Virus record (IMG/VR): IMGVR_UViG_3300035171_000016
Coordinates: 64,001-128,000 of that record
From: a virus
Direction: 5' to 3' (one strand)
DNA: 64,000 bases
Positions 42,290 to 63,963 of this stretch are shown here, piece by piece; positions within the stretch are counted from its first letter, which is position 1; each line of letters opens with the position of its first letter. Under the pieces are notes generated by a model. It saw only the letters and a list, made by a program, of their open reading frames with translations. It was not told the DNA's origin and searched no databases. Position numbers and translations under genes: made by a program.

Positions 42290-44148
42290 TAGGTAGTCTT
42301 ACCCATCATAATCGGCATCCATAGGTTTGCCGATTTTTTTACGTCTCCAGCTCTATTCATATCAAAGTAAGCTTTAGCGGCTTCTATTGCTAATAAAAGA
42401 CTAGTATAGCCGTCTTTACGAGCACGGTTAGCACTTTTATTTCTTTTTAGAGTTACTGGCAAATCAAAAATCTGGCCACCAGAAGGCGAGTTACGAATTT
42501 CTATTAAACTAGCCTGTTTTTTAATTTGATAAACAAGGTCGTCTTCATTTGAAATTAAATCTACTATAAACTTGTTTTTATTTTCGCTTTCTTCAAATGG
42601 GTATGGAATTCCGCTTGTTATAGCAGATTCATAATCGTTATGAGAGGTTAGTCTAGAAGCAAACCAGATTTTTTTAGTATTTATCCACGTTTGTAGTTGT
42701 TCATTAATTCTTCTGATAGACTGTTGGTTAAAAACGTGTTTAAAACAAATTTTATTATTACTTAAATTGTATTCTTTTTTGAAATCTAACAACATTCTAT
42801 TATAATCGTCACCATGAAGTTCTCCATTATATTCTAATAGATTAACCTTGAATTTGTTATCTTGAAACAAAGCAGACTCATTACAGCTAGAGGTAAATCC
42901 GCCATCAGCATTATCAAAGCATATCATTTGAATATTAAAAGCTTTTAATAGATAATAAAAATATTTGATATGTTCTTTTAAGTCTTTTCCGGCTTCCATA
43001 TACGAATGGACTACTGTTGCCGTTTCATTTTCTGGATTTAATTTCAAAACACACATTGCGAAGAAATCTGAACTAGGACTATTAGAAAACGATGGGTCGC
43101 ATCCTAAAACATAAATATCCTCTGATTTTCCTCTAATTTCCATACATGGAGAATCAGAATCTTTAACAGTTAATTCATGCATTTTCTTAGCCGAAAAATA
43201 AGAATCGCTACCATCTGTAAAATGTGCGCCAAATTCTCTTTGAAAGATTGGGTCATGTTCGCCCATAGAGCTAGCTTCTTCAATAACACTCTTTTCAATA
43301 AAGAGTTTCGGAAGAGCCTTATAACCTATTTGAGCAACGAAATAGGTAGCATCAACTACCTTATCTTCCGCTAAAATATTCTCTATCCATTCTTGAAATG
43401 TTTTATAACATGGCTCAAAAGTATAAGACGCGCTGGTTAAGCATATCATTCTTGCCGAAGATGGGAATACCATCCTATCCTTTTCCTCTATCTTTCCTTC
43501 TTTAACAAGTTCGTCTTCCTCGTCTGCCTGACGAATACGCTCTCCGACATTTGACGGAACCAACAAGAACGGCATTAATACTTTTTTAACAACCTCTTCT
43601 GAAAAAAGTAGATATTCATCTAAAATAAGTAATTGGGCGCGAAAACCACGAAGCTTATCAGAGTTCATGGGAATTGCTCTGATAATTCCGCCATTCAAAG
43701 CGATTTCAAATGCATCATTTCTCTTACTTTTTGCGCCGAAACATTCTTTAAGTAAGAAACCTTCTTTTGAGTCTATTATTTTTTCCAAATTGTTAAAGAT
43801 ATGTCTAGCTGTACGAAATGTCGGGCCGCATATAACAACATTAGTTCCCGGATTGAATAAAGGATATAAGAATGCTATAATGGCAGCTATAAAGCTTTTT
43901 GAAGCACCACGAGAGGCCACAATCATTGAAAAATTTCTATTAAAAAGAGCTTTTAATAAAATCTCTTGATATGTAGCTAGAGTTACTTTTCTTTTAGTTA
44001 ATAATTCCAAACCAAAACCAAGATTTGCTCTTAAAAACTTTCCGAGTGCGGCCATAGCCTGCTTATCGGTAAGCTCTCCTTTTAAATCTAAAATAGATTG
44101 ATTTATATTTGGATATTTTTTCTCGTATTTTTTAGGGAAATATAACAT
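42286..44148 (-). CDS. terL: Terminase large subunit
   Basis: YQ, Walker A ASRGASKS, PTFR.A, RGFRA.LLILDE, F.REF.A.F, nuclease GCDPS...D...KD. Confidence 0.9.
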   Translation of the reverse strand: MLYFPKKYEKKYPNINQSILDLKGELTDKQAMAALGKFLRANLGFGLELLTKRKVTLATYQEILLKALFNRNFSMIVASRGASKSFIAAIIAFLYPLFNPGTNVVICGPTFRTARHIFNNLEKIIDSKEGFLLKECFGAKSKRNDAFEIALNGGIIRAIPMNSDKLRGFRAQLLILDEYLLFSEEVVKKVLMPFLLVPSNVGERIRQADEEDELVKEGKIEEKDRMVFPSSARMICLTSASYTFEPCYKTFQEWIENILAEDKVVDATYFVAQIGYKALPKLFIEKSVIEEASSMGEHDPIFQREFGAHFTDGSDSYFSAKKMHELTVKDSDSPCMEIRGKSEDIYVLGCDPSFSNSPSSDFFAMCVLKLNPENETATVVHSYMEAGKDLKEHIKYFYYLLKAFNIQMICFDNADGGFTSSCNESALFQDNKFKVNLLEYNGELHGDDYNRMLLDFKKEYNLSNNKICFKHVFNQQSIRRINEQLQTWINTKKIWFASRLTSHNDYESAITSGIPYPFEESENKNKFIVDLISNEDDLVYQIKKQASLIEIRNSPSGGQIFDLPVTLKRNKSANRARKDGYTSLLLAIEAAKAYFDMNRAGDVKKSANLWMPIMMGKTTY

Positions 44149-44151: not shown

Positions 44152-45060
44152 TTAAATAAACTTATTATCTATCATATATTGAAAATCAATTTTTCTAGGG
44201 TCATTTTTTAATTTATATAAATTAATAATAAATTCGGATGCTTTAACTCTTCCATCTACGCAACAAATTTGTACATTTTCAAACTTTAATAACAAATCTC
44301 TTATTCTATGTAATATATAATCTGGCGTTGCCTCGCTTCTTATATATTTTAAATGATTAAATCCAAATAAATTAGATATTTTTGATTCTATAAGAATAAT
44401 TATATTGGCATTACTATCTTTAGCTCTTTGCATTTCTCTACATAACCTGTCAAATCCAGAACTCAAAGAGCTAATAGCATCCTGTAAACTTTTTCTTTCG
44501 ATAAAAATATTAAATTTATTATTTCTTGCCGAATAATCACCAAAATCTAATTTAATTATTTCTTTATTAGTTTTTATATCTAATACCGACTGCTCTCTAG
44601 TATCTATTAATATTTCTGGTTCAATATTGTTATATTCTAATATTTGATTATAATCATATCTAACATCTAAAGAAATTTCATCGCATATATTTTCATAACT
44701 ATTTTTTCCATAAAAATTATGAAAAAATTTAATTGATGGATAACATAAAGTTCTTAATTCAAAATTAGAAGGAGCATAAATATATCCTTTTAATATTTTT
44801 CTCTTATTAAGCCAATTAGTAAGATATAAAAGTCCTTCTTCTTTTGTTTTAGATTGTAAATATTTTTTTAAGTTATCTTTACCTACAAAATCTGACGTTA
44901 AATATTGTTCTGGAGATTTAAATGGAATTAATTCACCAGTAAACAAATCTAAAGATTCGTAAAATTTTTGATAATAATCTGATTCTTTAGTACGGTGCTT
45001 TTTCCAAAAATGTGCTCGCTCCGTAAATTCTTCTCCACATATTTTACAAATATTATCCAT
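44152..45060 (-). CDS. C2H2 Zn finger plus ERCC4 (XPF/Mus81-like) nuclease
   Basis: CKIC...H...H; IDTREQ, GDYS, IERKS..D. Confidence 0.85.
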   Translation of the reverse strand: MDNICKICGEEFTERAHFWKKHRTKESDYYQKFYESLDLFTGELIPFKSPEQYLTSDFVGKDNLKKYLQSKTKEEGLLYLTNWLNKRKILKGYIYAPSNFELRTLCYPSIKFFHNFYGKNSYENICDEISLDVRYDYNQILEYNNIEPEILIDTREQSVLDIKTNKEIIKLDFGDYSARNNKFNIFIERKSLQDAISSLSSGFDRLCREMQRAKDSNANIIILIESKISNLFGFNHLKYIRSEATPDYILHRIRDLLLKFENVQICCVDGRVKASEFIINLYKLKNDPRKIDFQYMIDNKFI

Positions 45061-46188: not shown

Positions 46189-46893
46189 TTAAATAAAATC
46201 TATTTTATCTTTAACCTCTCTAGCTATCTTAATTATATTTCGTTTAATTTGCTGTATTCTAGCATATCCCGGTTTTCTATTTTTTTCGTGGCTAACAAAC
46301 CCCATATCTTTAGCTACTTGTTCTTCTGATAAATTTTTGATATACAAAGCCTCATATATTAACCACATAGATAGCTTTAATTTCTTTTTCATTTCGTCGT
46401 GAAATATTAATATATATTTCTCTGAATCAATGTGGCTGGATGGCATTTCCATTACTTCATTTGTATGATTTTCGGTAGAAACCGGAAGTTTAACATTATG
46501 AGCATATTTTTTACCATTTTCCCATTTTTTATATAATGGACAATTAGAATCTTGTTTTCCGTTTACAGTCCAGTCACATCCATCTGAGCCGGTATTAAAT
46601 ACGCACTTTAAACATGGCCTAGAGCAAGAATCATATACGTTTCTTTTAAGATTTCGTAATTGATTATTAATAATTGTATTAATCCACGGTTCTACCTGTT
46701 TGGTACTATCAAATAAATGCCACTTCTTAAATAAATGAATCCTAATTATTTGTTCAATATCCTCCCAGTCTATTGAAGATATGATTTTTAATTGCCATTT
46801 ATGCTTATTTCTAGATAACAAATTATCTATAATAGGTAACGATTCCTCAAATGTTATATTTTTTTTAGCTTCCGTATTTGGAGTTTCTTCCAT
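46189..46893 (-). CDS. Sigma-like factor with Cys-rich insert
   Basis: D.EDI.Q.I..HL..KW..FD......WI.TII.NQ.RN (region 2); C..PC..C..C..C; HTH EEQVAK.MG. Confidence 0.7.
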   Translation of the reverse strand: MEETPNTEAKKNITFEESLPIIDNLLSRNKHKWQLKIISSIDWEDIEQIIRIHLFKKWHLFDSTKQVEPWINTIINNQLRNLKRNVYDSCSRPCLKCVFNTGSDGCDWTVNGKQDSNCPLYKKWENGKKYAHNVKLPVSTENHTNEVMEMPSSHIDSEKYILIFHDEMKKKLKLSMWLIYEALYIKNLSEEQVAKDMGFVSHEKNRKPGYARIQQIKRNIIKIAREVKDKIDFI

Positions 46894-48720: not shown

Positions 48721-49911
48721 TTAGACCTTATCAGTGTCAAGCTTTTCAAGAAAATACATGAATTCGCTTTCTTCCCACAATAATTCTAATTTTTCATTAA
48801 TAATTTTAATTGGTTCATTTATTGTTGGATTAATATTTCTTCCAATAATATAATCTTGATAACTAGCAAAAAACTTTCCGCCGCCAAGGATTAATTTACT
48901 AGATTTATAATATAAATTATCAATATTAATATTTTTTAATTTATCGGGCATTTCTTTTGATATAACCACAATTGGAGAATAATCTAAATAATCTAATTTA
49001 ATATTATTTAATTTTTCTTGATTTAATTCTGATATTAATTGATATGGAATTTTTAAAGATATTAATTGTTTAATAAAATCTGGATTATTATTTTCGGCTA
49101 TACAATAAACAATACCAGAAATATTTTTCTTATATTTTTGTAGAATATTTAGCGGAATTTCTTTTGTTGTAATAATTTGACAAGGATTTAAGGCTAATTG
49201 ATTTTGCAGTATAGCCAAATTAAAATTCCAATCAATTCTCATTACTAGATTTTGAGCATTTAGTTTTTTTACGTCTATTACGTCTGTAACAGCGGATTCT
49301 AAAAATTTATTATTAAATAAATCTCCAATATATAAGGTATTATATGGATAATTAAAATTATCGTTTAATAACTTAATGACTGATTTAGCAATTTGCTCTG
49401 GTTTAATTTCGTTAATTTGTTTATTTGGTCCCTCGTCTAACGAAAACATTGGATTTTTAGATTTTCTATCTGGTTCTAAAATAATTTGTTTGGATTTGTC
49501 ACCAAAATAAGGACGAACACAATTAGAAAAATTATTAGAGATTAGGTCAACTAATGGTATATTATAATGTCCAGCTAAATGCGCTCCAACTGAATCTGTA
49601 CATAAAACTAGCTTTGATTTGCTGATAATATATTGGAATTGGCCCCAATTAGTGCTTCCTTGTAGATGCCTACAATATTTTAGCGGCCTTTCGTCTTTTG
49701 CGCCTAGCTGTAAAATTTCTATATTATTTTTTTGTAAGTAAGGATAGATTAAATCTAAAACCTCTTCCCAGTAACTATAATTTTTAGATGGTTTGCTCCA
49801 AGGTTGGATAACTATATAGTCATTAGGCAACCCTGGGTAGAATTTTTCACAAGTATGAATCTTGTCAATTTTTTGTCCTGACGTTAAACTATAATTTTGC
49901 ATTATATTCAT
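48721..49911 (-). CDS. GT9 (heptosyltransferase-like) C-terminal domain plus unknown domain
   Basis: YIVIQP....KNY..W..V, QLG...E, L.G.T.....II....L....DS...HLA.....P.V.L. Confidence 0.8.
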   Translation of the reverse strand: MNIMQNYSLTSGQKIDKIHTCEKFYPGLPNDYIVIQPWSKPSKNYSYWEEVLDLIYPYLQKNNIEILQLGAKDERPLKYCRHLQGSTNWGQFQYIISKSKLVLCTDSVGAHLAGHYNIPLVDLISNNFSNCVRPYFGDKSKQIILEPDRKSKNPMFSLDEGPNKQINEIKPEQIAKSVIKLLNDNFNYPYNTLYIGDLFNNKFLESAVTDVIDVKKLNAQNLVMRIDWNFNLAILQNQLALNPCQIITTKEIPLNILQKYKKNISGIVYCIAENNNPDFIKQLISLKIPYQLISELNQEKLNNIKLDYLDYSPIVVISKEMPDKLKNINIDNLYYKSSKLILGGGKFFASYQDYIIGRNINPTINEPIKIINEKLELLWEESEFMYFLEKLDTDKV

Positions 49912-49921: not shown

Positions 49922-50770
49922 TTAAATTTTCCATTTTTTAAGAGTTTTATTTTTATGTAATTGTTTTAATTTATTTAAATATCGCACTTTTCTATCTAAC
50001 GATAAATATAAATTATCTTTATATAAATAATCCATAATTATCATTATATTATTAATTCCATAAATATTCATATAATGAACATCTTTTTTAGAAACGGTAA
50101 TATAGTTCTTAATTTTTAATTTATTTTTAATAAAATTAGATATTTGCTCTATAATTTTTCTAGAACCGGAGCAAATGTAAAACTGAGTATTTAAATAATT
50201 AGTTTTTTTACCTTTAACTAAATAATAGTTAATACAACCATCGCCTTCAAAATAACCTCTTAAAAAATATGGCATCAAAGACTGTTTTATATTAGGCATT
50301 TCTACGGTTTTTGATTTATTTTGGACACATCCCAATCTTGCTAAATCCTCGCATATTTTATGACTTCTAATGCTTAATCTTAATAAATTTTTTTTATTTT
50401 TGAGTTTACTCCTATCAATAAATAATAATGGCCTATCTGTTTCAATAATTTTTTGTAATTTATTTAAAACTATCCTATCGCCCTCTTGTATAGAAATGTG
50501 GAAATCTCCATCTTTTAAGTTATTATATCCATCACTAAACGCCCATCCTAAGAAGTATGCCTTATCTAAAGTATTAATATTATTGAAAATATTATGATTA
50601 ATATTATATTTTCTATACGCTCCAACAGCTCTAGATTTTATATTAAATTTTCTTAAAATATTCATAATAGTTACCGCGCTAGTATTATATCTAGCTCCTA
50701 TTTTACTCAAACTCAATCCTTTATTATATAAATTAATAATGATAGGATATTTTCTTTTATCTATTTTCAT
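49922..50770 (-). CDS. LAGLIDADG homing endonuclease (two motifs, N-terminal HTH)
   Basis: AYFLGWAFSDG and FLRGYFEGDGCI, L.RK. Confidence 0.92.
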   Translation of the reverse strand: MKIDKRKYPIIINLYNKGLSLSKIGARYNTSAVTIMNILRKFNIKSRAVGAYRKYNINHNIFNNINTLDKAYFLGWAFSDGYNNLKDGDFHISIQEGDRIVLNKLQKIIETDRPLLFIDRSKLKNKKNLLRLSIRSHKICEDLARLGCVQNKSKTVEMPNIKQSLMPYFLRGYFEGDGCINYYLVKGKKTNYLNTQFYICSGSRKIIEQISNFIKNKLKIKNYITVSKKDVHYMNIYGINNIMIIMDYLYKDNLYLSLDRKVRYLNKLKQLHKNKTLKKWKI

Positions 50771-50773: not shown

Positions 50774-52720
50774 TTATACGGGGACAAAAACCGAATTATT
50801 TGATAAATAATTAAGAAATTTTTGGGTTCCGGCAGCAACAAAACAATATCCATTAAACATACCCTTTCTCTCTCCCTGACCAATACAATATATTTCAGAT
50901 TGCATAAAATCTTGATAAGGCAATACTTTATCGAGATACGGATTTAAGTCAAATAACTCCGAAAACTCTGGTTTAGTTGCCAAATATAAATTCCATTCTT
51001 CGCTAGGATATGATTCTCTAAAAGATTTAAGAGTTGCGGATACATATAAACAATCCCCTGCGGACTCTGGACATACAATTAAAAATTGTTTTTTGCCATT
51101 ATTTATTAACAAAGACTCAAAAGGAATTTGCGGCTGTACTTTTTGATTATGTTCCATTGCCGCCCTACGGAATGAATTTACTAGACTTTCTCTCAATTTT
51201 CTTTTTTCTCCATCTTGAGATAGAAATTTCATCCAATGCTGTTTACCACTATCATTTTCCGGCAAATTCATATTCAGAATTTCTTTATAACAGTGGTCAA
51301 TAAACTCAATATCGGATTGCTTATCTTCTATTCTAGCATTAATATTTTTCAGTTCTTTCTTTCTATTAAAATAAGAGTCCCAATCAATCTTTTTGCAAGA
51401 ATCAAAAAAAGATTCTAATTTGCCAGCAATAACATTGGCGTCAAAGTTTTCAACCGTCCATTTTCTTGCTCTTTCTGTAATATCTTTCTTTTTTTCTGGA
51501 GAAAGATTATAAACAAGCTCATAAAATTCAGTAATTGATTTAATATCAGGCACGAATTTTTTAAAACCAGTTCCAACCTCTCTAGTATAGGTACCCCTTA
51601 GAGAAAAAACGAAATCATTTTTGACATAATCTTCTCCACAAGAATATGGGAAAGAGGCAAATGGTATTCCAGCCAGCATTGATTCTTGGCTTGTTAATTC
51701 GCTTCCACCACTATTAGGACAGCTACAAGAGCCATCGGCCAAATTATAAATTTTATTTAAATCTTTTTCGTTGATGGTACTAGTAATTCCTGCGCTAATT
51801 CTACTTTTCTTTGATTTACAGGTAGGACAGTCCAAATCTTCTCCGTCATGCGGGGCTACTTCCCATTCTTGACAATTTTTACAAAAATATGTGCATAAAA
51901 CATCTTCCTTGTTAAGTTTAAGTTCATCTCTAATTCTATCAATTGGCCAGCCGTTAGGTTCGGTAAAAGAAGTATGTAATAATAATCTTACTTTCTTATC
52001 AGGATTTTTTAGTTTAAATTCTTTTAAACCCTCTAGAAGAGCCCATGCTTGTTTTCTTAATTGGTTTCTAAATACATAAATAATAACTTTTTCATCATCA
52101 TTAATATTAAATTTACGTCTTAATTCTAATCTTTCTTTATTTGGTAGAGGATAGAAATCGTCAGTATTGAAAGCTGGAAATAGTGTTTTACAATGTCCAT
52201 ATTTTTCAATATTTTCTTCTTTTAATGCTCTTTCTGCAAAGCTAGACCAAAAATACATATTAGGACAATTTTCTGCCCATGTTTTAAAATTAGGTAAAAT
52301 AGGCTCAGAATCAGCGGTTGTCCATTGAATAAAATTTTGTTTAATATGTTTATACCAGTCTTGACTTATATAAGATTCTTCACTAGAACTCCAAATATCA
52401 TCTGCGTGAATAACGCAATCTAACCTGTTTTCTGTAACAAATTTTTCCACTACATTGTTTCCATAACTAACCCACCTTCTATATCCTTCATCCTGATTAA
52501 ATCTGTTCTGGTCAAAATTAACCATTGTACCAAAGCTTTTCCAAGGATATTTTTGAAAACTGGGGTCATTATCTGAAAATCCTTGATTTAGAAAGTATAT
52601 ATCATATTTATTTGTCTTATAAATAATTGGTAGCCAAGCTTTTACGCATCTAGCTAAACCTGTTTTTAAAGAGATATTATTGGTAATTATACCAATTTTA
52701 AGTTTGTCTTCCATGTACAT
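50774..52720 (-). CDS. GT4 glycosyltransferase with Zn-ribbon insert, DUF4214-like domain and GT9 N-terminal domain
   Basis: TGLAR, FRNQLRK, CKNC..CPTC, LN.IYN..D, GG.EL...E....G; FI...Y..IL....D.G..HW; ESAGD...LKS....YP...NPY.DKV. Confidence 0.85.
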   Translation of the reverse strand: MYMEDKLKIGIITNNISLKTGLARCVKAWLPIIYKTNKYDIYFLNQGFSDNDPSFQKYPWKSFGTMVNFDQNRFNQDEGYRRWVSYGNNVVEKFVTENRLDCVIHADDIWSSSEESYISQDWYKHIKQNFIQWTTADSEPILPNFKTWAENCPNMYFWSSFAERALKEENIEKYGHCKTLFPAFNTDDFYPLPNKERLELRRKFNINDDEKVIIYVFRNQLRKQAWALLEGLKEFKLKNPDKKVRLLLHTSFTEPNGWPIDRIRDELKLNKEDVLCTYFCKNCQEWEVAPHDGEDLDCPTCKSKKSRISAGITSTINEKDLNKIYNLADGSCSCPNSGGSELTSQESMLAGIPFASFPYSCGEDYVKNDFVFSLRGTYTREVGTGFKKFVPDIKSITEFYELVYNLSPEKKKDITERARKWTVENFDANVIAGKLESFFDSCKKIDWDSYFNRKKELKNINARIEDKQSDIEFIDHCYKEILNMNLPENDSGKQHWMKFLSQDGEKRKLRESLVNSFRRAAMEHNQKVQPQIPFESLLINNGKKQFLIVCPESAGDCLYVSATLKSFRESYPSEEWNLYLATKPEFSELFDLNPYLDKVLPYQDFMQSEIYCIGQGERKGMFNGYCFVAAGTQKFLNYLSNNSVFVPV

Positions 52721-52774
52721 ATAATATTATTTATATTTAAAAATTAAACTAATTTAATATAATATTTTGATAAT

Positions 52775-52804
52775 ATGGAATAAAAAGGAATAATCTTATT
52801 CCAT
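52775..52804. repeat. Direct and inverted repeats upstream of portal
   Basis: ATGGAATAA, AAGGAATAA (10-bp period) and inverted TTATTCCAT. Confidence 0.65.
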
Positions 52805-52807
52805 TTA

Positions 52808-52812
52808 GTGTA
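52808..52812 (+). promoter_or_regulatory. GTGTA putative phage late-promoter motif
   Basis: 9 nt before portal ATG; same motif 9-11 nt before four other starts. Confidence 0.55.
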
Positions 52813-52821
52813 TATATTAAT

Positions 52822-54915
52822 ATGAAAAAATTAGCCGAATTTGCAAGAGAAAATAAATTAAACTATAAGAACCTATGGCGAGAAGTTAAAAATGGCACGG
52901 CCTCTATTAAAACCACAACTAAAAATGGAAGAATTTATGTACAGGAAGAGGCCACGGCCTCTAAGTTGGCCAAATTTGTAGATAATGAAGGCAAATTCTA
53001 TACTCCAGTTTTGTCCGGTAAGGATACTATTGTCGCGTCATCAACTCGCAGAAACGCTGCCGCTACTAGTACTCCAACTGATGAATATTATAATATTTCT
53101 AATGGTTTAACTCCATTTAATAATGCGTCTCAAAGAACTGGTGGAGACGGCGGTGGTATGTTTCCGGTTGCAGAGGCTATTCTTTTAACTCAAAAGGCTT
53201 ATTATAATTTTTCAGTTTTTAGAAATATCATAGACTTTATGACAGAGTTTTCATGCTCTAAGATATTCTTACAAGGCGGCAATGCAAAAGCTCGTAATTT
53301 CTTTGAAAATTTCTTTGATTCTATCAATATTAATGCTCTACAAGACAAATTTTTTAGAGAAATGTATAGGTCAGGGAATTGTCTAGTATATCGTTTTCAG
53401 GTAAAAGCAAAACAAGAAGATATAGATAGATTAAATAAAATCTACGGAGCAACAGCCGCCGCTCTAACTCTTCCGTCTAAATATATACTAATTAATCCAT
53501 ATGATATTGGCGTTCAATCTAATATAGTTTTCGGCTCCAATGTAATTTTCTTTAAAAGACTTAATGGTTATGAAGTAAATCGTTTAAGAGCTTCCGAAAC
53601 CCCAGAAGAAAAGCAGTTTTTTGATAGTCTACCAGAAGTAACACAAAAACAAATTAAGGCCGGTTCTGGAACAGTATTAATTCCGCTAGACCCGGAAAGA
53701 TTATATGGAGTTTTCTTTAAAAAGAGTGACTACGAATCTATGGCAATTCCAATGGGTTATCCAGTTCTAAAGGATATTGAATGGAAGGCCGAAATGAAGA
53801 GAGTTGACATGGCTGTAGCTAGAACAATGCAACAAGTTGTTTTATTGGTAAACATGGGATACGAATCTAAAGATGGAACTTATATGTTTGATGGTAAGGC
53901 GGCAGAATCAATGCAAACATTATTTGCTAGCGAATCAGTAGGTAAAGTACTAGTTGCCGACTTTACTACCAAATTAACATGGGCTATTCCAGCAATCGGA
54001 GACTTTCTTGACCCTAAGAAATATGAAATAGTTAACCAAGATATTAAAGAAGGATTAAATTATATATTAACCGGAGGCGATTCTAAGTTTGCTAATCAAT
54101 TTATATCTGTAAAGCTTTTCGTAGAAAGACTTAAAAGCGGAAGAGAAATGTTTTTGAATGAATTTCTTATTCCAGAAATGAAAAAAATATCTGAAAATAT
54201 GGGTTTTAAATCTTGCCCTACTCCAAAATTTGAAGATATTGATTTAAGAGACGAGGCAGAATGGGAAAGAATTGTAACTCAATTAGGTTCTTTAGGTATA
54301 CTTACTCCCCAAGAAACTTTAGAGGCTATGAATTCCGGTAGACTTCCTACCGCCGAAGAATCTATAGAACATCAAAACGAATATCGAGCGCAAAGAGACA
54401 AGGGTTTATACGAACCACTAGTAGGCGGCCCTTATGATACGGCCAAGCTAGCTAAATTAACGGCTGCTCAAAAACCAGCAGCGCAAACAAATCCATCAGA
54501 TTTAGGTGGTCGCCCGGGAAATGTAAAAACCAAACAAACTACTAAAAAAGTAGGTATTTCTAGAGGCTCTATACAAGAAGAGATGGCTATTCAAAGTTTA
54601 TATTCTTTATCTAAAATTAAAGATAATTTAATATTAGCTGCCAACCTTAAAGAAAAAGTAAAGCAATACTATGCAAAAGCAAAAAATATTAAAAAATTTA
54701 ATGACCAACAAATGTTCATTATTAATGAAATAAGCGAATTAATTATAGCTGACTGCAAACCAAATGAATGGGAACTTAATATCGAGAAATATATTAAAGA
54801 GCCAATCGCCTCTAACGAAAAGAATATTAAGGAAATAGAAGAAATAGCTTTAGAACATTCTCTACCTCATTCTTTAGCCGCTATTTTACTTAATAGTAAA
54901 TTAGAAAAAATCTAA
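52822..54915 (+). CDS. Portal protein with N-terminal HTH
   Basis: AY...SVFRNIID.M.EF, E.YRSGN...Y, INPYDI, K..YE....P; size and position near terL. Confidence 0.75.
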   Translation: MKKLAEFARENKLNYKNLWREVKNGTASIKTTTKNGRIYVQEEATASKLAKFVDNEGKFYTPVLSGKDTIVASSTRRNAAATSTPTDEYYNISNGLTPFNNASQRTGGDGGGMFPVAEAILLTQKAYYNFSVFRNIIDFMTEFSCSKIFLQGGNAKARNFFENFFDSININALQDKFFREMYRSGNCLVYRFQVKAKQEDIDRLNKIYGATAAALTLPSKYILINPYDIGVQSNIVFGSNVIFFKRLNGYEVNRLRASETPEEKQFFDSLPEVTQKQIKAGSGTVLIPLDPERLYGVFFKKSDYESMAIPMGYPVLKDIEWKAEMKRVDMAVARTMQQVVLLVNMGYESKDGTYMFDGKAAESMQTLFASESVGKVLVADFTTKLTWAIPAIGDFLDPKKYEIVNQDIKEGLNYILTGGDSKFANQFISVKLFVERLKSGREMFLNEFLIPEMKKISENMGFKSCPTPKFEDIDLRDEAEWERIVTQLGSLGILTPQETLEAMNSGRLPTAEESIEHQNEYRAQRDKGLYEPLVGGPYDTAKLAKLTAAQKPAAQTNPSDLGGRPGNVKTKQTTKKVGISRGSIQEEMAIQSLYSLSKIKDNLILAANLKEKVKQYYAKAKNIKKFNDQQMFIINEISELIIADCKPNEWELNIEKYIKEPIASNEKNIKEIEEIALEHSLPHSLAAILLNSKLEKI

Positions 54916-57093: not shown

Positions 57094-60000
57094 TTAAGTT
57101 CTTTTAGGAGCGAAGGTTTGATGTAAGATTCCTCCCGGTCTGCTTTGTTGAGTCATTTCTTTTACTATCATTCCTTTAATATTATCGGCTACTTTCGATA
57201 GAACATCCTTGCTATCTTTTTCTGACGTTCCATTTTTAGAATCTGAACTTGATTTAGAGTCGCTAGATGTTACTTCTCCGGTATGATGCATAGAAACATT
57301 TACAGCCACATGATTGGTAACATTAGACTGTGGTTTAGAATCACTATTTTTATTTCCATTCGTTGATAGTTTTTCTTTAATTTGGTTTAAAGCATTTATA
57401 ATTTTAGTTGTTCCATCGTCTGAATTAGATTGTCCGCCAACATATCCTCCATCGGCATATTTAGCTGTAGAATTGAGAGATTTAAAGAAACTAGTTCCGT
57501 ATTTATTAACCGTTTGTGGGCTCATTACATACTCTCCGCCCATAACCATAGCACTAAACTTATCAGAAGAGTTTTCGCCGCCAAAATAACCGCCGCCAGC
57601 AAATTTAGGAATTAATCCGCCACTAGCTCTACTTGTTAGTCCAAAACCATAAGGGTTATAGCTTTGAGTTCCATATGAATTAATACTATTAATAGTAGTA
57701 TTATTTCCAGCAAAATTATTTGCGGCAGAGGAATTTAATGGGCCTTGGCCTTGATTTAAAGCTGATATTTGGTTGTCTGTAGGATTATTACTATTGCTAA
57801 CTTGAGCAAACGCACCAACAACATTACCAACGGCACCCAAATAAGCCAATCCTAAATTTAAATTTTGAGAAAACTTAAAGGCATCTAATTGTTTTTGATA
57901 CTCTCTTTCGGCTAACCTTTTATTAAGGGCGTACTTTTCTCTTGAAAACTTTAATTTATTTTGAGGATTATTATCATCTGTTTGTCCTATAGCGGATAAT
58001 AATGAACTTGTTTTAAAAGAGCCCTTTCCTTTATTAATTAAAAATGCATTAGCTAATGTTATGTCGGTAGAGCTTCCGTTTATTGAAATGGAATCACTAG
58101 TAACACCCGGAAAAGAATTCTTTTTCTTGGGTCTATTAATAAATGCTCCCGGCTGCCTAAACGAGTCCCTTTGTTCCCCTGTTCCGTTTAGGTGATTTAG
58201 ATTATCAACACCAATACGATTTACTGCGTTTTTATTAATAACAAATTCCCCGCCGCTTAAAAATGCCGGAACATCATCTCTTACTCCAGAACCCATATTT
58301 ACAAATCCGCCTTTAGCAAATTTAGGAATATATCCACCAGAAGCTTTTCTATTAGGCGGAGTAGCCGATGGTATTATACTAGGAGCAAAAGAAGCTATAC
58401 CTTTAAAGGCAGCACCAAATAACGAGTTAATTCCAATATTTATAGCCTTAGAAGCTAAACTTTGGGCTAATGATATACCTAAATCTCTAAATGCCTCGCT
58501 TGCATTTTTTGCGCCTTTAGTTATCTCTAATAAATTATAAGATAAATCATTTTTGATTTCCGCTGAAAATTCCTGCAATCCAACAACAGAATCTTTTAGA
58601 AAAGTAGACGTATTATATTGGAATGGAGCCGCAGCCGCTTGTGCGAAGCTAGCCCCAGTTAAAGCTGTACCACCAATTCCGTTTCCGCGCTGAGAAGCCG
58701 CACCAATATTATTTTCTAAGTTTTTAGCAGCGATTCTATCAGTAAAAGCTAATTGAATATCTAAATTTTTATTCTGATTTTCAATTTCATCGTTAATATT
58801 TTTTTGTTTTTCTTCTAATGCTGTAGAAGCAGATATTAAATTTTCTAATATTACTTCTTGAGTTTCTAGTTCTGCGCCAGCAGGAAGAGAAGAGATTTTT
58901 GATTTCGTGCCGTTAATTAAACTATCTATTCCGCTTTTATTTATATTATTAAAATCTACATCCGAAACCGTACCTGATAAATTAGTTGATAGGTTTTTCC
59001 TTTGCGTTGCTAGTTCCGCTTCATATGATTGCGCTCTTTGTATAGCAGCAACTTGGAATGGATTTGCACCAACCTCGCTTCTTTGTAATCCAGAAATTTT
59101 ATTTATTGAATTTCTATCAATAATTCCACTCTGTCTAATATTATTTTGTGCTTTAGCGAATTGTACGTTTAAAAATTTTTCATTATTATTAAACTCGGCT
59201 AATCCTTTAGCATCATTTGAAGCAAGATTAGAACGTAAAACAGACAAGTCTTTAATATACTTTAATAATGAACCATTTATTTTTTCTTTTATAGAAACTA
59301 GTTCGTCCTGAATTGACTTTATAGTTTTATCGTCTAGAGATAGATTGGAAATATTATCTATTTTCCCCCCTAATAAAGTATTTTTTAAATCACCTTCTGG
59401 TAATTTACTTATTTTATTTAAAGACGTTCCAGATATTTTTTTATCATTAGAATTTAAATCGCTAATAACGGTATTTATTAATGCTTGACTCCCTTTAACA
59501 AGACTAACATTTTCTATTTGTTTTGCTATTTGATAGTTTATTTGTTCTGGTGAATTTGAATTAATATTTCCAAAAACAGAAGAAACAAAAGATGAAGATT
59601 TTTTAAATCCAGAATTTATAGATTCGGCATCGCCATTTAATTTATTTTTTTCAATACTATCTTTTAATAATTTTAATAAATCATTTTTACCAGATACTAA
59701 TCCTTCGTTACTTGATATAGATAACTCTGCTTTTAGTTGTTTTTGAGCCTTATCAAACTCGTCTTTATCTTGAGCTAATTTTTCTTGAAAGGAGACATAA
59801 TTTTTAAAATAAGAATTATCTCCAGAATTTAAAATAGATATTTGATTTGCGCCTTGACGATTTATAGCCCTAACATCTATATTGCTTACATCTCTACTTA
59901 AACCTTTTAATATTTTAATATCAAAATTATTTAAAGATTTACTAGAAGACTCTAAAAATTTTATTAAATCAGAATTAATAGTTTCTAAAGCATCATCGTA

Positions 60001-63000
60001 TAACTGAATATTTTTATCAATAACTTTTGAATTTTCTTTATTTGCATTAATATTTGAAGAACTAAATTTTCCAAATAATACTTTTGAAAGAAAATCTGGG
60101 TTATTTTTACCCGCCTCGCTTACTTGTTGAGATATATCTCCAAACTGAGAGCCGAAACCCTTTGAAGATAAAATAGGCTTTAACGCTGAAAGGAATCCAG
60201 ATAGACCGCCAGACCTAGATGATTGAATTTGCTCTAAATCTTTAGGACTTAATACGTCTTGTAATGACTGGCCAGAAGTATTTAGTCTTGTTAATAAAGA
60301 ACTAGAAAATTGTTGAACCCTCTCTAAGTCGGTAGACTCTCTATCCAATCTTTTTCCTCTAAGATACTGTCCAATTACTGGGTCATTTTCTGAATTACCA
60401 GCTCTAGCACTTGTAGTAAAAAACCCTCTTTCAAAACTTTCAAACCCGCCGGGTTTAGATGTTGAATTTAATATGCTAGCATCTTTACCAGAATTAATAT
60501 TTTGACTATTAATAGTTTGAGCAATATCAGCGATATTATTAGCTTCGGAAAAATTTCCACTTGTAACGGCGGACTGTATTCTTCCGCGAAATTCAGACGG
60601 AATACCTGCAAAGGCTATATTTTTTTGACCCTCTAGTAATCTTTTTTGTAAAGCAGTAGCGGATAAATCATTTCCAATACTTGCTAGCTGCTGAGAAATA
60701 GAAACGTAAGAGCTTAAAGAAACCGATGTTTTTTGTGCCGAATCGGTTAATAGCTCTAATCTCTTTGATAAATCTGGAAGGGTATCAGAGAACGCTTTAA
60801 ATACAGTAGGTAATTCCAGTAACGCTCCCACTCCGGCTCCGGCTACGGCTCCTAGCGGATTTCCTCCAGATAATCCTAACCCAGTTAAAGCATATGAGCC
60901 TATATTTCCAGCGGCACCAATAGAAGCGTTTGCTCCACGAGCCGTAGTAGAATTGTTTCCAATTAATCCTTCTGCGGTATTTTGAATTACTCCCGTTAAA
61001 ATAGGAAGAGCAAAAGAACCTAATAATGCCTGTCCAGCAACTCTTTGCCTTGCCCTCTGAAACGATGCGTTTTCTCCTAAATTTTCAGATTCTTTAGATA
61101 GTTTATTATCTTTAAATACAGAATTAAAAATATTTAATTTATCCAATTTTGATTGGAAAATTTTACTTCTATTTTGAAGTTCTTCTTCGATTATCTGGTC
61201 TTCTTGAAGTGAAAGACCTCTATTTAACTCGGCTCTTCCGGGGCCAAGTAATTCATCTCCAGATACTCCAGATTGAAAAATTCTACTAGATAACGCTCCG
61301 CCTTCATTTAATACTTTTGTTACTCCGGCAACATTAGAAGCTCCATTATCAATAGTTCTTATTCCTCTGGTAGTAATTTTGCCACTAGAAGGGTCTTTAG
61401 TTATATCTAAAACCTTAGTAGTATAACTTAATTTTTGAGTATTTTGTATTATTTGAGATTTAAACTTTTGCATCTCTTCGGAACTTTCACTCGCTCCTTT
61501 AGATACTAAACTTAAATATTCATCTATTTGTTTATTAATGATATTAGCCTCTCTAATACCCTTAAATCTTACATCTTCTCTTAATAGTTGTTGTTCTCCA
61601 TTAACTCCGGTAGGCAAAAGAATGCTTTGGTTAACAGTTCTTTGGTTTGCAATATTAAATCTATTGGCTTGTGCATCTAAAATCTTTTTATTATTAGCAA
61701 GATTAAATATAGCATTACCTATTACTGACGTTTCAGAGTTTCCTGCTCCAGAAAAGCTTGGATAAAATTGAAATGCTCCCGGATTAAAGCTTTTAGTTTT
61801 TTGTTCAGCCGTACCAAAGTTTACATCCGACGCTTTTGTAATAGCTTTTATAAAATTATCTAGCGACTCCGTAGATTTCTTTAAGCTAATATTTAAATCA
61901 AGGGTGCTTTTACTTATCTCTGGTAATTGTATAGCATTTTTACCAGTTCCGGCTCCAAGTAATAAAGGAAAGGGTTTTTCTGGTGGAGGCGTTCCGTATC
62001 TAACAGAATCGGGGGCTAAACTAGCTGGATTAAAAATAGGCTTAGCTTTTTTAAATTCTTCTGGAACTAGATTAGAAGGTAATAGATTAAAAGGGTATGG
62101 AATATCCGCAAAATTAGGAATATTTCCTGCTTTTTTAGGGTCATTTCCGCTTCTTCTAGACCTATTAATACCCTGTTGAAGACCAAGCGGCTCATCTTTG
62201 GTATTATAAATACCAATTCCTAAAGGATTATCGGCAGAAATAAGCTCTCCAGAACTTCCTACTCTAATCTGAGAAGGATTAATACCTGCCTTTGTTTCTC
62301 TTTCTATAGCGTCTGATAAAGCACTAAAACCCGGAATATTTTTAGCTCTACTATTACCAGTTATTTTTTCATTGGTAATTACAAACGGGGCCGCAGTTGC
62401 TCCAACGCCTCCTAATGAAAATTTAGATATTATTTCAGCTACTCTTGCCGCCGCAGCAGCATTGGCATTTAGTTGGGCATTTTGTTTTGCTAAAATTTCA
62501 CTAACAACCTGTTGAACTTTATAAGTTTCGTTTCCTGCTGCGTTTATTTTTTGTATAGCACCCGGTTCAGATTGTAATAAGTCTAAAATAATTCTTTCGT
62601 TTCTTGCTCTTGCACTAGATACTTCGAGAATAGTTGCAAATGATTTTGCTGCTTGAACTGTAAATGTAGCAAATAATTTACTAACTAAGGTACCCGCCAA
62701 CACTAGGCCCGGCCCAGATAAATAGTTTCCTAATCCCTTTAATATTCCCGTTCCTAGATTTTCCCCAATATCAGAAGTAGCAGCAAAATCAGTAAATTTA
62801 AATAGATTTTTTAATGCGGGGGCAATTGATAAATTACCTACTTTTGCTCCAAATTGCTGTAGATTATTTAAAGATTGGTTTAGTTCCGAGGCCAATGTTT
62901 TATTAAGCTCTGCTTGGCGTCTTGCAGCTTGGTCAGAAGAGTTTGCGGAAGTAGATAGAGCACGTTCATAGATAGAACTCTGTTTCCCTAAATCTTGCAA

Positions 63001-63963
63001 TATAGCTCTAAATTGGTTTGCTTGAAATAGTCCCGAACTTAATTGTACAATTTGTTCTCTTTGGGCATCCGAAAGCGTTTTATATGCTTGTGCCGTATTT
63101 TTTAGAATAGCATCAGATGATAAAATTTTTCCATTAACATCTTCGGTTAAAATTCCTAACTGTTTAAGATTATCTAGAACTTCTGGACGCTGTACTCGTT
63201 GAAATATAGATTTTAATGCGTTGCCGATAACCGCGCCACCACGCTGCGTTTGTTGTTGCGCGGAGGTAACTAGGGCTATAAGAGAGTCAAAGCTTACCCC
63301 GGTATCCTGAGCGGTAGAGCCTACACGTTGTAAGGCTTGGGCTAAATCTCCCGAACTCACAGAAAACTGAGCGTCTACAGTTGCTAATTTATTTACTAGT
63401 ACTGTAGAATCTAAAGCAACATCATTAAAACTGTTTAAAGCGGCTGTAATGGCCTTTGTGGACTCTACAACATCTAATCCACTTAAACGGGTAAGAGTAA
63501 GCGCATCTTTGGTTCTTTTTAAGGTTTCTGATACAGATAAGCCTTGACGAGAGAATTCTAGGGCAGACGAGGCGGCAATTTTAAATGATTGTCCCGTTTC
63601 ATTAGCTACTTTAAAAAGAGATGTAGAAAAACCTTCTAGTTGCTTACTACTTAATCCAAAAATATTATTAATATCAGCTAATTCTTTTTGTACTTCGATA
63701 GTAGACCTAATTAGAGCGTCCATCGCCCTAGAGATTAGATAAACCTGCCCGGCAGTAGCACCGAAAGAAATAACACGGGCACCAGCGGATTGTAGAGCCT
63801 TCTCGAACTCTCCAACTTTCGTACTAATCTGTCCTAATCCAGAGGCGTCTACTCTAACTCTTACAGGTCTAGCCTCAAGACGCCTAACAGCATCAAAAGT
63901 CTGTGACTCAAGAAGCTTAGTATTTGCACCTATTACTAATTCTGCATCAAATTGACCGGCCAT
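57094..63963 (-). CDS. Tail tape measure protein (TP901-like core)
   Basis: 2289 aa; A.EFSRQG, D..F.VSS.DLA.AL.R.GS.A, R.G..IGN.LK.IF.R; C-terminal GG.IP.FA.GG and GEFVI motifs. Confidence 0.93.
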   Translation of the reverse strand: MAGQFDAELVIGANTKLLESQTFDAVRRLEARPVRVRVDASGLGQISTKVGEFEKALQSAGARVISFGATAGQVYLISRAMDALIRSTIEVQKELADINNIFGLSSKQLEGFSTSLFKVANETGQSFKIAASSALEFSRQGLSVSETLKRTKDALTLTRLSGLDVVESTKAITAALNSFNDVALDSTVLVNKLATVDAQFSVSSGDLAQALQRVGSTAQDTGVSFDSLIALVTSAQQQTQRGGAVIGNALKSIFQRVQRPEVLDNLKQLGILTEDVNGKILSSDAILKNTAQAYKTLSDAQREQIVQLSSGLFQANQFRAILQDLGKQSSIYERALSTSANSSDQAARRQAELNKTLASELNQSLNNLQQFGAKVGNLSIAPALKNLFKFTDFAATSDIGENLGTGILKGLGNYLSGPGLVLAGTLVSKLFATFTVQAAKSFATILEVSSARARNERIILDLLQSEPGAIQKINAAGNETYKVQQVVSEILAKQNAQLNANAAAAARVAEIISKFSLGGVGATAAPFVITNEKITGNSRAKNIPGFSALSDAIERETKAGINPSQIRVGSSGELISADNPLGIGIYNTKDEPLGLQQGINRSRRSGNDPKKAGNIPNFADIPYPFNLLPSNLVPEEFKKAKPIFNPASLAPDSVRYGTPPPEKPFPLLLGAGTGKNAIQLPEISKSTLDLNISLKKSTESLDNFIKAITKASDVNFGTAEQKTKSFNPGAFQFYPSFSGAGNSETSVIGNAIFNLANNKKILDAQANRFNIANQRTVNQSILLPTGVNGEQQLLREDVRFKGIREANIINKQIDEYLSLVSKGASESSEEMQKFKSQIIQNTQKLSYTTKVLDITKDPSSGKITTRGIRTIDNGASNVAGVTKVLNEGGALSSRIFQSGVSGDELLGPGRAELNRGLSLQEDQIIEEELQNRSKIFQSKLDKLNIFNSVFKDNKLSKESENLGENASFQRARQRVAGQALLGSFALPILTGVIQNTAEGLIGNNSTTARGANASIGAAGNIGSYALTGLGLSGGNPLGAVAGAGVGALLELPTVFKAFSDTLPDLSKRLELLTDSAQKTSVSLSSYVSISQQLASIGNDLSATALQKRLLEGQKNIAFAGIPSEFRGRIQSAVTSGNFSEANNIADIAQTINSQNINSGKDASILNSTSKPGGFESFERGFFTTSARAGNSENDPVIGQYLRGKRLDRESTDLERVQQFSSSLLTRLNTSGQSLQDVLSPKDLEQIQSSRSGGLSGFLSALKPILSSKGFGSQFGDISQQVSEAGKNNPDFLSKVLFGKFSSSNINANKENSKVIDKNIQLYDDALETINSDLIKFLESSSKSLNNFDIKILKGLSRDVSNIDVRAINRQGANQISILNSGDNSYFKNYVSFQEKLAQDKDEFDKAQKQLKAELSISSNEGLVSGKNDLLKLLKDSIEKNKLNGDAESINSGFKKSSSFVSSVFGNINSNSPEQINYQIAKQIENVSLVKGSQALINTVISDLNSNDKKISGTSLNKISKLPEGDLKNTLLGGKIDNISNLSLDDKTIKSIQDELVSIKEKINGSLLKYIKDLSVLRSNLASNDAKGLAEFNNNEKFLNVQFAKAQNNIRQSGIIDRNSINKISGLQRSEVGANPFQVAAIQRAQSYEAELATQRKNLSTNLSGTVSDVDFNNINKSGIDSLINGTKSKISSLPAGAELETQEVILENLISASTALEEKQKNINDEIENQNKNLDIQLAFTDRIAAKNLENNIGAASQRGNGIGGTALTGASFAQAAAAPFQYNTSTFLKDSVVGLQEFSAEIKNDLSYNLLEITKGAKNASEAFRDLGISLAQSLASKAINIGINSLFGAAFKGIASFAPSIIPSATPPNRKASGGYIPKFAKGGFVNMGSGVRDDVPAFLSGGEFVINKNAVNRIGVDNLNHLNGTGEQRDSFRQPGAFINRPKKKNSFPGVTSDSISINGSSTDITLANAFLINKGKGSFKTSSLLSAIGQTDDNNPQNKLKFSREKYALNKRLAEREYQKQLDAFKFSQNLNLGLAYLGAVGNVVGAFAQVSNSNNPTDNQISALNQGQGPLNSSAANNFAGNNTTINSINSYGTQSYNPYGFGLTSRASGGLIPKFAGGGYFGGENSSDKFSAMVMGGEYVMSPQTVNKYGTSFFKSLNSTAKYADGGYVGGQSNSDDGTTKIINALNQIKEKLSTNGNKNSDSKPQSNVTNHVAVNVSMHHTGEVTSSDSKSSSDSKNGTSEKDSKDVLSKVADNIKGMIVKEMTQQSRPGGILHQTFAPKRT

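Follow-up and report, generated by a model that had tools for sequence, protein, structure and literature searches.

A winged helix-turn-helix of the IS607 transposase type at the N-terminus of a phage portal protein and a candidate array of binding sites upstream of its gene

Portal proteins are commonly viewed as passive, sequence-blind DNA channels, with genome recognition credited to the terminase, and the portal is needed at just 12 copies per capsid. N-terminal extensions are known from the connector of phi29, whose basic N-terminus binds pRNA, and from T4 gp20, which has N-terminal arms. The portal described here resembles both in carrying a flexible N-terminal extension for nucleic-acid or assembly contact, but theirs are unstructured peptides and not folded, sequence-specific DNA-binding domains. 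A portal with a winged helix-turn-helix (wHTH) was not described in the literature searched. Within the packaging machinery, a DNA-recognition domain of this fold class forms the N-terminus of the lambda small terminase gpNu1; in the present phage, in contrast, the domain sits on the portal and lacks the TerS oligomerization domain, and most of the portal family does without it. The same beta-alpha-alpha-beta-beta fold (Z 4.1–5.3 over most of the domain) is shared by Xis/Cox/BldC/MerR-type proteins, namely lambda, HK022 and Pukovnik Xis, the P2 Cox-like 4lhf, RdfS, Streptomyces BldC and pSK1 Par, several of which bind short direct-repeat arrays cooperatively. These are free-standing regulators or recombination directionality factors, whereas the portal HTH does not stand alone, and it also lacks the dimerization helix that follows the wing in MerR. 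In the transposase IS1535 TnpA, a winged helix formed by residues 1–50 binds four helically phased 9-bp repeats (PMC6188088).

The window analyzed here, a 64-kb stretch from the 147,760-bp (147.8-kb) genome of an uncultured phage, contains an open reading frame at 52822–54915 on the + strand, whose translation matches the earlier reading (MKKLAEFARENKLNYKNLWREVKNG...NGRIYV). Its product is a true portal protein, as the earlier note had held. Over 150 Foldseek matches at E <= 1e-3 were obtained with the full structural model (mean pLDDT 81); those listed as best were all portals with a probability of 1.00, among them those of T7, HFTV1, lambda, T4, SPP1, G20c and others. Likewise, a profile built from 120 family members recovered the SPbeta portal YonE (9pha, 12 chains) at E 9.7e-4. 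The whole protein had no significant match in Pfam, PHROGs, NCBIfam or PDB sequences, and tblastn against the 50,697 phage records of INPHARED returned no match. The family amounts to about 1,000 clusters at 50% identity and has been overlooked by annotation pipelines because it is absent from Pfam, PHROGs and the records of cultured phages. In the related loci L090 and L110, the portal gene lies directly 3' of TerL with an ERCC4 nuclease gene just upstream, while the order in L111 is TerL, ERCC4, portal; conserved head-module genes and the tape measure gene follow downstream of the portal gene. The features of the locus are collected in Table 1.

Table 1. Features in and upstream of the portal gene (positions in the window).
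Feature	Position	Strand	Remarks
Sigma-70-like promoter match (TTTAAA, 16 nt, TATAAT)	52736..52763	+	weak: 10/12 matches
Array site 1, ATGGAATAA	52775-52783	+	core GGAATAA begins 31 nt before GTGTA
Array site 2, AAGGAATAA	52785-52793	+	10 bp after site 1
Array site 3, TTATTCCAT on + strand	52796-52804	-	inverted copy; promoter-proximal, best conserved
GTGTATA, copy of the genome-wide GTGTA(A/T) motif	52808..52814 (GTGTA 52808-52812)	+	14 nt before ATG
Predicted winged helix-turn-helix	52822..52947	+	codons 1-42; structure models, fold searches, IS607 TnpA sequence link
Linker	52948..53154	+	codons 43-111; low confidence, mostly disordered, ~70 residues
Portal body	53155..54915	+	codons 112-697 plus stop; Foldseek portal matches, family profile match to YonE

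The N-terminal domain is predicted to consist of a strand, two helices (residues 4–10 and 15–24) and a beta-hairpin (residues 30–41), with a pLDDT of about 90 in two independent models and a positive net charge. It is followed by the linker, in which pLDDT falls to 40–56 across residues 45–79 and which holds a short motif (F-x-T-P, RRN, TD.Y..I..G..PF) that the alignment also places in short-form portals, i. e. those lacking the HTH. When 48,161 representative PDB chains were searched, wHTH domains of the Cox/Xis/BldC/MerR/Par type (Z 3.9–5.3, covering 41–47 of 48 residues) made up the majority of the top-scoring matches and 12 of the first 13, and matches in BFVD were excisionase/HTH_17-type proteins with an rmsd of 1.0–1.5 A. 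A Foldseek search of the 48-residue model against the PDB gave nothing significant, the best match being BldC at E 0.34. The domain is very small, and its fold-match scores are modest. The HTH of IS607 TnpA was not among the fold matches from the 48,161 chains; N-terminal domains of IS607 TnpA have been modeled only (PMC6188088). Judged by these models, residues 1–42 adopt a wHTH fold of the Xis/MerR/BldC class, so that structure prediction bears out the HTH proposed in the earlier note, and we regard it as very probable that this is a real DNA-binding domain. Its translation is indicated by the ATG at 52822, which lies at the modal spacing from GTGTA to an ORF start in this genome (14 nt), while the first in-frame methionine after the start is residue 113. 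For both reasons, a start downstream of the HTH, which the earlier note had named as an outcome that would speak against its proposal, is unlikely and was rejected.

The origin of the domain is indicated by profile comparisons. A profile of 12 portal N-termini, searched against 5.8 billion sequences, retrieved 13 small proteins at E 9e-14 to 7e-3, four of which carry the name integrase-resolvase or resolvase in their source records. Eight of the ten that were scanned matched NF033518 (transpos_IS607), and two of them (P0276 and P0277) did so at E ~1e-13 and reach the first part of the Resolvase catalytic domain. These small proteins are, to judge from their sequences, N-terminal pieces of IS607-family serine transposases. 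An hhalign comparison of the portal HTH with IS607 TnpA N-termini reached a probability of 99.4. Direct matches were marginal: hmmscan of the portal N-termini against NF033518 hit one of the 12 members at E 0.09, which together with a Cox-like excisionase and a transposase PHROG makes up the sub-threshold hints, and the N-terminus alone gave nothing significant in Pfam, PHROGs, NCBIfam or PDB sequences. Similarly, a search of the ESM Atlas yielded sub-threshold leads only (HTH_17, MerR and Cox clusters). Pfam HTH_17 (PF12728) weakly matched two of 12 IS607-type relatives; the portal N-termini had no Pfam match, and none matched MerR or MerR_1 even at E 10. Based on the N-terminal profile, the NF033518 matches and hhalign, which support the IS607-TnpA-like N-terminus claimed earlier, the portal HTH is shown at the sequence level to share ancestry with the DNA-binding domain at the N-terminus of IS607-family serine transposases.

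The likeness to IS607 TnpA (NF033518, COG2452) extends from the pattern (I)KLS-x-[WY]AK-x-x-G-x-x-Y-[KR]-x-A-W-x(5)-G-x-[LI]P...G-x-I-x-V to the placement of the domain at the very N-terminus, ahead of a flexible linker, and to 9-bp repeats in a register of about 10 bp immediately upstream of the gene (PMC6188088). In the phage, however, the domain is carried by a portal and not by a serine recombinase catalytic domain, and the array mixes direct and inverted sites and abuts a promoter-like motif. IS607 elements have ends with GG termini and subterminal repeats and often carry tnpB; in the phage, phased repeats are present, while TnpB and transposon ends appear to be lacking. The portal protein has no match to the Resolvase catalytic domain, and the phage genome has none to a recombinase domain or to IS607 (NF033518). 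The protein was therefore rejected as an IS607 transposase: without a Resolvase match, and with a disordered linker and the portal body behind the HTH, the DNA-binding domain alone is common to both. Identity as a MerR regulator was dismissed as well, as there is neither a Pfam MerR match nor a helix after the wing, only a similar fold (Z 4.0–4.7); so was a gpNu1-type small terminase, with which a low-Z wHTH fold is all that is shared and for which no TerS family match was obtained.

Among 269 family members, at least 78 (~30%) carry the HTH module, always at the extreme N-terminus. L4, A8, Y15 and W19 are invariant within the module, which is kept with a confident fold among portals down to about 35–40% identity. 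The HTH-bearing long forms are largely one clade; scans of metagenomes with the full portal alignment yielded mostly short forms, which begin with a basic peptide, MAKKSKK.... The one candidate for a secondary loss of the HTH, L174, is a contig truncated at its 5' end. No separate HTH gene was found within +/-4 kb of 80 short-form loci, nor in four longer short-form records (42–87% complete; a positive control was run). Divergent HTHs occur in L109, L110 and L111, where helix 2 reads Y[AIH]xA[WY] instead of Y[KR]xxW, and their upstream repeats differ as well.

Upstream of the portal gene, three 9-bp sites of the pattern [A/T][A/T]GGAATAA are spaced at 10 bp, two of them direct and one inverted. 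The single site is as common as chance predicts (WWGGAATAA, 11 found in the 64-kb window vs 11.5 expected); apart from the array, no three exact copies of GGAATAA/TTATTCC fall within 45 bp anywhere in the genome, and such an exact triple arose in none of 40 first-order Markov simulations. When one mismatch is allowed, the number of clusters genome-wide does not rise above noise (31 found; 20 on average and at most 32 in simulations). Two other GGAATA...TATTCC pairs were inspected and look like chance, given their ordinary surroundings and no further copies beside them. An array in 10–11-bp register to GTGTA recurs in L082, L083, L084, L089, L090, L091, L002, L092 and L114 (45–83% portal identity); about ten HTH-bearing portal genes have it. 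Site 1 keeps its position and orientation in L082, L083, L084, L089 and L091. Site 2 has degenerate counterparts in L084 (GGTATAA) and L089 (GTAATAA), while in L082 its place is taken by TTATTAC, an inverted copy with one mismatch. Site 3 ends 5–6 bp ahead of GTGTA in the window and relatives; its TTATTCC begins 12–13 nt before GTGTA in the window, L082, L089, L091, L002 and L114, with a one-mismatch variant in L084 and TTATTCT, 15 nt before GTGTA, in L092. The array stays beside the portal gene although the upstream neighbor varies among relatives, and in L092 and L002, where an endonuclease gene is inserted between promoter and portal ORF, it remains with the promoter. The site pair was absent from all 87 short-form loci, so that the comparison stands at 0/87 short-form vs about 10/14 long-form loci, which is not a count of independent events because the long forms are largely one clade. 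The repeats pointed out in the earlier note are thus real, phased and conserved, and they occur only with HTH-bearing portals.

The GTGTA motif next to the array belongs to a wider set: 22 of its 69 occurrences in the genome precede the start of an ORF by no more than 60 nt (about 3 expected; mode -14), and it precedes 81 of 87 short-form portal genes. In this phage group it is found upstream of genes in general, and it has no tie to the HTH. The adjacency of repeats and GTGTA described in the earlier note stands. GTGTATA is a candidate for a promoter-like element or for part of the translation-initiation region; if GTGTA(A/T) is a promoter, the sigma-like protein that the phage encodes at 46189–46893 might recognize it. 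Sigma-70-like matches, such as the one in Table 1, are no more frequent in the region than in shuffles, and the TATAATATTWTGA part of that match is common to the nearest relatives only.

Could the repeats be explained without the HTH? GGAATAA...TTATTCC could pair in most relatives, with loops of 4–13 nt, and might form an RNA or DNA hairpin serving as mRNA 5' stabilizer, upstream terminator or translational operator. We consider this very unlikely, since the predicted fold is ordinary (-9.4 kcal/mol, z -1.04, with 29 of 200 shuffles at least as stable), a search for a terminator-like site found none, and extra unpaired copies are present in the window, L002 and L114. Moreover, the 10-bp register is kept in either orientation, which is characteristic of sites lying on the same face of a duplex, and L092 has three direct copies without a partner, for which protein sites are a better fit than a hairpin. 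Another explanation is a functionless relic, the HTH and end repeats being what remains of an IS607-type element that once inserted before the portal gene. The HTH is indeed of the IS607-TnpA type, and the left end of IS607 likewise has repeats that precede the start codon of an HTH (PMC6188088). Yet a phage GTGTA motif separates array and HTH, and no recombinase remnant was found in protein or genome; the idea of a domesticated IS607 left end put forward in the earlier note hence finds no support. In addition, invariant residues and a confident fold persist in the at least 78 sequences, and the non-coding array is kept at a divergence where neutral DNA is randomized, so that a relic without function is extremely improbable and already disfavored.

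An IS607-type HTH and matching, regularly spaced sites at its own promoter suggest that the portal probably recognizes its own DNA. The wHTH of ~42 residues has been joined to the portal through the flexible linker, and in the proposed explanation the tethered domains, one per subunit and twelve per ring, would bind the upstream array in the manner in which IS607 TnpA binds phased 9-bp repeats. Binding of the array by the HTH appears somewhat favored. Free portal protein on the array might then exert feedback, probably negative, on transcription of the portal gene; we infer this effect on transcription because the array is unique in the genome and keeps a fixed distance to a promoter-like motif. 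Portal autoregulation as the outcome of such a pairing is a tentative proposal, however, and the explanation as a whole, with the array bound by the HTH and portal expression under feedback, is the likeliest of the readings considered but falls similarly short of being probable. To our knowledge, a transcription-factor role would be unusual for a structural virion protein. That the array is an operator is itself an assumption, GTGTA being either a promoter or a translation signal, and another phage regulator could be the one that binds it.

It is conceivable, if unlikely, that the HTH functions away from the array, binding DNA non-specifically or at other places (e. g. packaged DNA around the portal inside the head) or docking to protein, with the array as operator of a different regulator or as an architectural promoter element. 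N-terminal arms in solved portal vertices touch capsid or DNA and not promoters, and the positive net charge of the domain would suit this role. HTH and array could also have been co-inherited in one clade without interacting, so that their co-occurrence may be phylogenetic. On the other hand, the array type shifts where helix 2 of the HTH shifts, the genome offers no other array copy for a general regulator, and the homologous IS607 TnpA proteins bind phased 9-bp repeats beside their own gene sequence-specifically (PMC6188088).

The main rival to autoregulation is a role in packaging or DNA anchoring, in which the array is a unique pac-like mark read by the HTHs, or the HTHs keep the end of the DNA at the portal, either way standing in partly for a small terminase. 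This would agree with the uniqueness of the array, its location between TerL and portal in the ancestral gene order, the lack of a recognized small terminase beside TerL and the presence of TerS-related wHTH chains among the fold matches (7lxs, Z 3.4; 6hn7, Z 3.6); twelve tethered domains facing 3–4 phased sites would also provide avidity. Most family members, however, package their DNA without the module, which is encoded nowhere in the four short-form records (42–87% complete), and the array, at its fixed 5–6 bp from GTGTA, tracks the portal promoter and not TerL, as a pac site need not. We therefore regard such a role as distinctly unlikely.

In a further reading, the assembled portal ring, its twelve HTHs recognizing a unique array, would itself be a sequence-specific DNA-binding machine that either couples the supply of free rings to late expression or selects and holds viral DNA without or alongside a small terminase. 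This is improbable, but if true, it would constitute a way of recognizing the genome that is not known from tailed phages and that arose by recruitment of a transposase domain. In any case, a lineage of large aquatic phages, uncultured but widespread, retains a predicted sequence-specific DNA-binding domain on its portal, an instance of a virion protein that has taken up the DNA-binding domain of a transposase. The portal HTH and its candidate sites thus present a testable case of either assembly-coupled autoregulation of a low-copy structural gene or portal-mediated DNA recognition.

The IMG/VR virus record comprises 147,760 bp with 31% G+C, of which the window covers bases 64001-128000; the portal gene and the neighbouring features are located as listed in the table. 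The assignment as a portal is safe, and the N-terminal sequence written out in the earlier note matches the translation of the ORF exactly. With the AlphaFold2 model (mean pLDDT 81) as query, the best Foldseek matches listed are solved portals only, all with a probability of 1.00 (T7, HFTV1, lambda, T4, SPP1, G20c, P74-26 and others). In relatives with a seemingly older gene order, the portal gene directly follows an ERCC4-nuclease and TerL pair, of which the nuclease comes first in L090 and L110 (L-numbers denote related portal loci from other phage DNA). By sequence, the whole protein has no match in Pfam, PHROGs or the PDB, nor by tblastn against 50,697 phage records. It is a member of an uncultured family of very large size, with 1,401 matches in a 90%-clustered database (1,039 representatives at 50% identity). 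The family comes from freshwater and marine samples, with many members on 150-310 kb contigs, and has no entry in Pfam, PHROGs or the phage records of INPHARED. With a profile of 120 family members, YonE, the portal of SPbeta, is reached at E 1e-3, a link made only by this family profile.

Location of the portal gene, its upstream elements and further features (window coordinates unless a locus or the genome is named)
Feature	Position	Strand	Remarks
Array site 1, ATGGAATAA	52775-52783	+	
Array site 2, AAGGAATAA	52785-52793	+	
Array site 3, inverted copy TTATTCCAT	52796-52804		
GTGTA	52808-52812	+	GTGTATA-type element 52808-52814; 14 nt before portal ATG
Portal ORF	52822-54915	+	697 residues
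Tape measure	57094-63963	-	2,289 residues
TerL	42286-44148	-	
ERCC4-type nuclease	44152-45060	-	adjoins TerL
Sigma-like protein	46189-46893	-	234 residues; weak sigma-70 region-2 match (Pfam E 1e-4, PHROG sigma factor E 8e-5)
GT9-like gene	48721-49911		
LAGLIDADG-type endonuclease	49922-50770	-	PHROG E 4e-47
Glycosyltransferase-like gene	50774-52720		648 residues
TATAATATTWTGA	52758-52770		
TATAATATTWTGA	7383-7395		
TATAATATTWTGA	genome 59741-59753	-	
Inserted endonuclease	L092: 2741-3997		HNH/NUMOD4
Inserted endonuclease	L002: about 2362-2701		HNH-like by sequence
Inserted endonuclease	L087: upstream of 1486		HNH-like by sequence

In two independent models, portal residues 1-41 adopt a predicted winged helix-turn-helix (wHTH) composed of a strand, helices at residues 4-10 and 15-24, and a β-hairpin at residues 30-41, with a pLDDT of about 90, which agrees with the HTH proposed in the earlier note. 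A low-confidence linker, i.e. a flexible tether, extends from there to about residue 110 in the same models. The fold class of this module tops a search of 48,161 representative PDB chains, with the phage P2 DNA-binding protein 4lhf as best match (Z 5.3), along with the excisionases RdfS (Z 5.1) and Pukovnik (Z 4.9), BldC (Z 4.8) and several MerR N-domains (Z 4.0-4.7). Further matches are TraN, pSK1 Par and the Xis proteins of Tn916, HK022 and lambda; two terminase-related wHTH chains rank lower (Z 3.4-3.6). Foldseek alone placed BldC and Par first, without significance, and in BFVD excisionase/HTH_17-type phage proteins, with no portal among them, matched at an rmsd of 1.0-1.5 Å. These scores are modest, as expected at 48 residues, and the family of matches is consistent.

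At the sequence level, the resemblance of the portal N-terminus to IS607 TnpA, likewise put forward earlier, is a real relationship, since several comparisons converge on it. Searching 5.8 billion proteins of 26-97 residues with a profile built from 12 portal N-termini retrieved 13 small proteins (E 9e-14 to 7e-3), four of which are named "site-specific integrase-resolvase" or "resolvase" by their sources. Ten were scanned; in eight, the NCBIfam model for IS607-family transposases, NF033518, gives a match. For P0276 and P0277, two proteins from this search, this match has an E of about 1e-13, and both sequences continue into the beginning (Y-x-R-V-S-[ST]) of the serine-recombinase domain. Portal N-termini and IS607-type proteins have the pattern (I)KLS-x-[WY]AK..G..Y[KR].AW.....G.[LI]P...G.I.V in common, and hhalign aligned the portal N-termini with the small-protein set, itself picked by the profile, at a probability of 99.4. 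Unlike IS607 TnpA, the portal is devoid of the remainder of the transposase; the Resolvase domain has no match in the protein, and NF033518 none anywhere in the phage genome. TnpA residues 1-50, a predicted winged helix, are required for DNA binding, and four helically phased 9-bp direct repeats, 20-60 bp away from the left end, serve as nucleation sites for IS1535 TnpA (PMC6188088). The domesticated IS607 left end suggested in the earlier note lacks support in the form proposed; between the array and the HTH sits a GTGTA motif of the phage. Instead, the data favour a more modest version, in which the portal recruited a transposase-type DNA-binding domain that may work like its relatives. That HTH and array are a dead relic of an IS607 insertion is extremely improbable and contradicted by the deep conservation of both.

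Related portals carry the HTH as well: the module is present in at least 78 of the 269 fetched family members, always at the extreme N-terminus, and a few further members have divergent versions missed by the model. In a tree of the portal core, these long forms account for most of a single large clade that extends to about 35-40% identity, while short-form lineages, which are without the module, lie outside it and in a few cases are nested inside; therefore, several losses or gains must have occurred. The short forms (L003-L081) have a strongly basic N-terminal peptide (MAKKSKK..., MAAQRKK...) and, after it, a conserved P-L/I-M motif. TerL genes ahead of them encode T-F-x-P-x-M at their ends, with only a few codons left to the stop. 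No separate module gene turned up, either in the ±4 kb around 80 short-form loci or in four longer short-form phage records, and the same search on the window's genome returned its own copy (E 6e-25) and nothing else. Given this deep retention in long forms and absence from the short-form phages searched, the module is a long-kept accessory rather than a universal part of the packaging system.

Upstream of the portal gene, GGAATAA/TTATTCC cores form a helically phased array at 52775-52804, with an inverted copy near GTGTA as described in the earlier note. This triple is the only exact GGAATAA cluster in 147.8 kb (0 in 40 simulated genomes). With GTGTA as reference point, the forward cores begin near -31/-32 and -42/-43 and, at some loci, also near -20 to -22; the reverse cores begin near -12/-13, -21 to -25 and -33 to -35. 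The cores hence keep a 10-11-bp register, which is found in the window, L082, L083, L084, L089, L090, L091, L002 and L092 as well as, read by eye, in L114; the portals of array-sharing phages are only 45-83% identical. Degenerate versions occur in L085, L004 and L120. Despite variable orientation (L092 has three TTATTCT copies in direct orientation at exact 10-bp steps, L114 one forward and three reverse copies), the phase and a 5-6-bp gap to GTGTA are kept throughout. It is very unlikely that the repeats represent an RNA or DNA hairpin, as the fold is no better than that of shuffles (z -1.04), no terminator-like site was found, and direct-only arrays exist. The array stays with the portal gene whatever the upstream neighbour (glycosyltransferase, YopX-like genes or TerL), and in L092 and L002, where an endonuclease gene is inserted between promoter and portal ORF, it remains with the promoter. 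Such insertions, ending 3-20 nt before the portal ATG, are seen in three relatives, and this gap looks like a recurrent insertion point. In the window, the LAGLIDADG endonuclease is wedged between the glycosyltransferase-like and GT9-like genes, with gaps of 3 and 10 nt.

The GTGTA motif is a general upstream signal without particular tie to the HTH, since it is found upstream of ORFs genome-wide and before short-form portals. GTGTA(A/T) occurs 69 times in the genome, 22 of these on the right strand at most 60 nt upstream of an ORF start versus about 3 expected (e.g. ahead of ORFs starting at window 10109, 16749, 18081, 20542 and 29674), with a modal distance of -14, also given as 14-16 nt before the ATG. 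In other phages it precedes 81 of 87 short-form portal genes, GTGTAAT following almost immediately after the TerL stop codon. This promoter-like motif may act as a late promoter or, alternatively, as an atypical signal for initiating translation, and a candidate for its reader is the sigma-70 region-2-like protein encoded in the gene run beside ERCC4 and TerL. The genome contains three copies of TATAATATTWTGA; the one ahead of the portal array is common to the two nearest relatives, L082 and L083, and overlaps a sigma-70-like -10 element. The ERCC4-type nuclease gene adjoins TerL in the window, L090, L110 and L111, and in L091 and L109 an ERCC4 gene is situated a short way upstream of the portal; in several of these, a conserved protein of 365-413 residues is encoded ahead of the ERCC4/TerL pair, and no small terminase was recognised.

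HTH and array co-occur: the array accompanies HTH-bearing portals and its site pair is found in 0 of 87 short-form loci, in a set of loci that are phylogenetically non-independent. Three deep-branching long forms have Y[AIH]xA[WY] in helix 2, versus the usual Y[KR]xxW, and at the same place carry other short repeats (TGTGAAT/ATTCACA; TGAAATTTCA; GTTAATT twice at 10 bp). Suggestive of co-variation between helix 2 and the repeat sequence, this comparison comprises very few points. Alternatively, the HTH might act elsewhere and the array be bound by another factor, which appears rather unlikely. A role in packaging or DNA holding is unlikely in view of a module that is dispensable in relatives and an array locked to the promoter, even if the genome contains only this one array, which the older gene order places between the TerL and portal genes, and a TerS was not recognised.

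A regulatory accessory is favoured because the spacing to GTGTA is fixed, the array tracks the promoter and not TerL, and most family members are without the module. Since its relatives among the transposases recognise phased 9-bp repeats adjacent to the genes that encode them, the portal HTH may analogously bind the upstream array, and the fixed array-GTGTA spacing suggests an effect on transcription; the full chain from binding to portal autoregulation is possible, if tentative. Full-text literature searches yielded no description of a portal fused to a winged-helix or HTH domain. A known virion protein thus appears to be joined to a known DNA-binding domain in a way not described before, together with a candidate cis site. 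Portal protein in free form, or as free rings whose twelve tethered domains confer high avidity, would occupy the array, and this occupancy could damp or tune the synthesis of the portal, which is needed at 12 copies per head.
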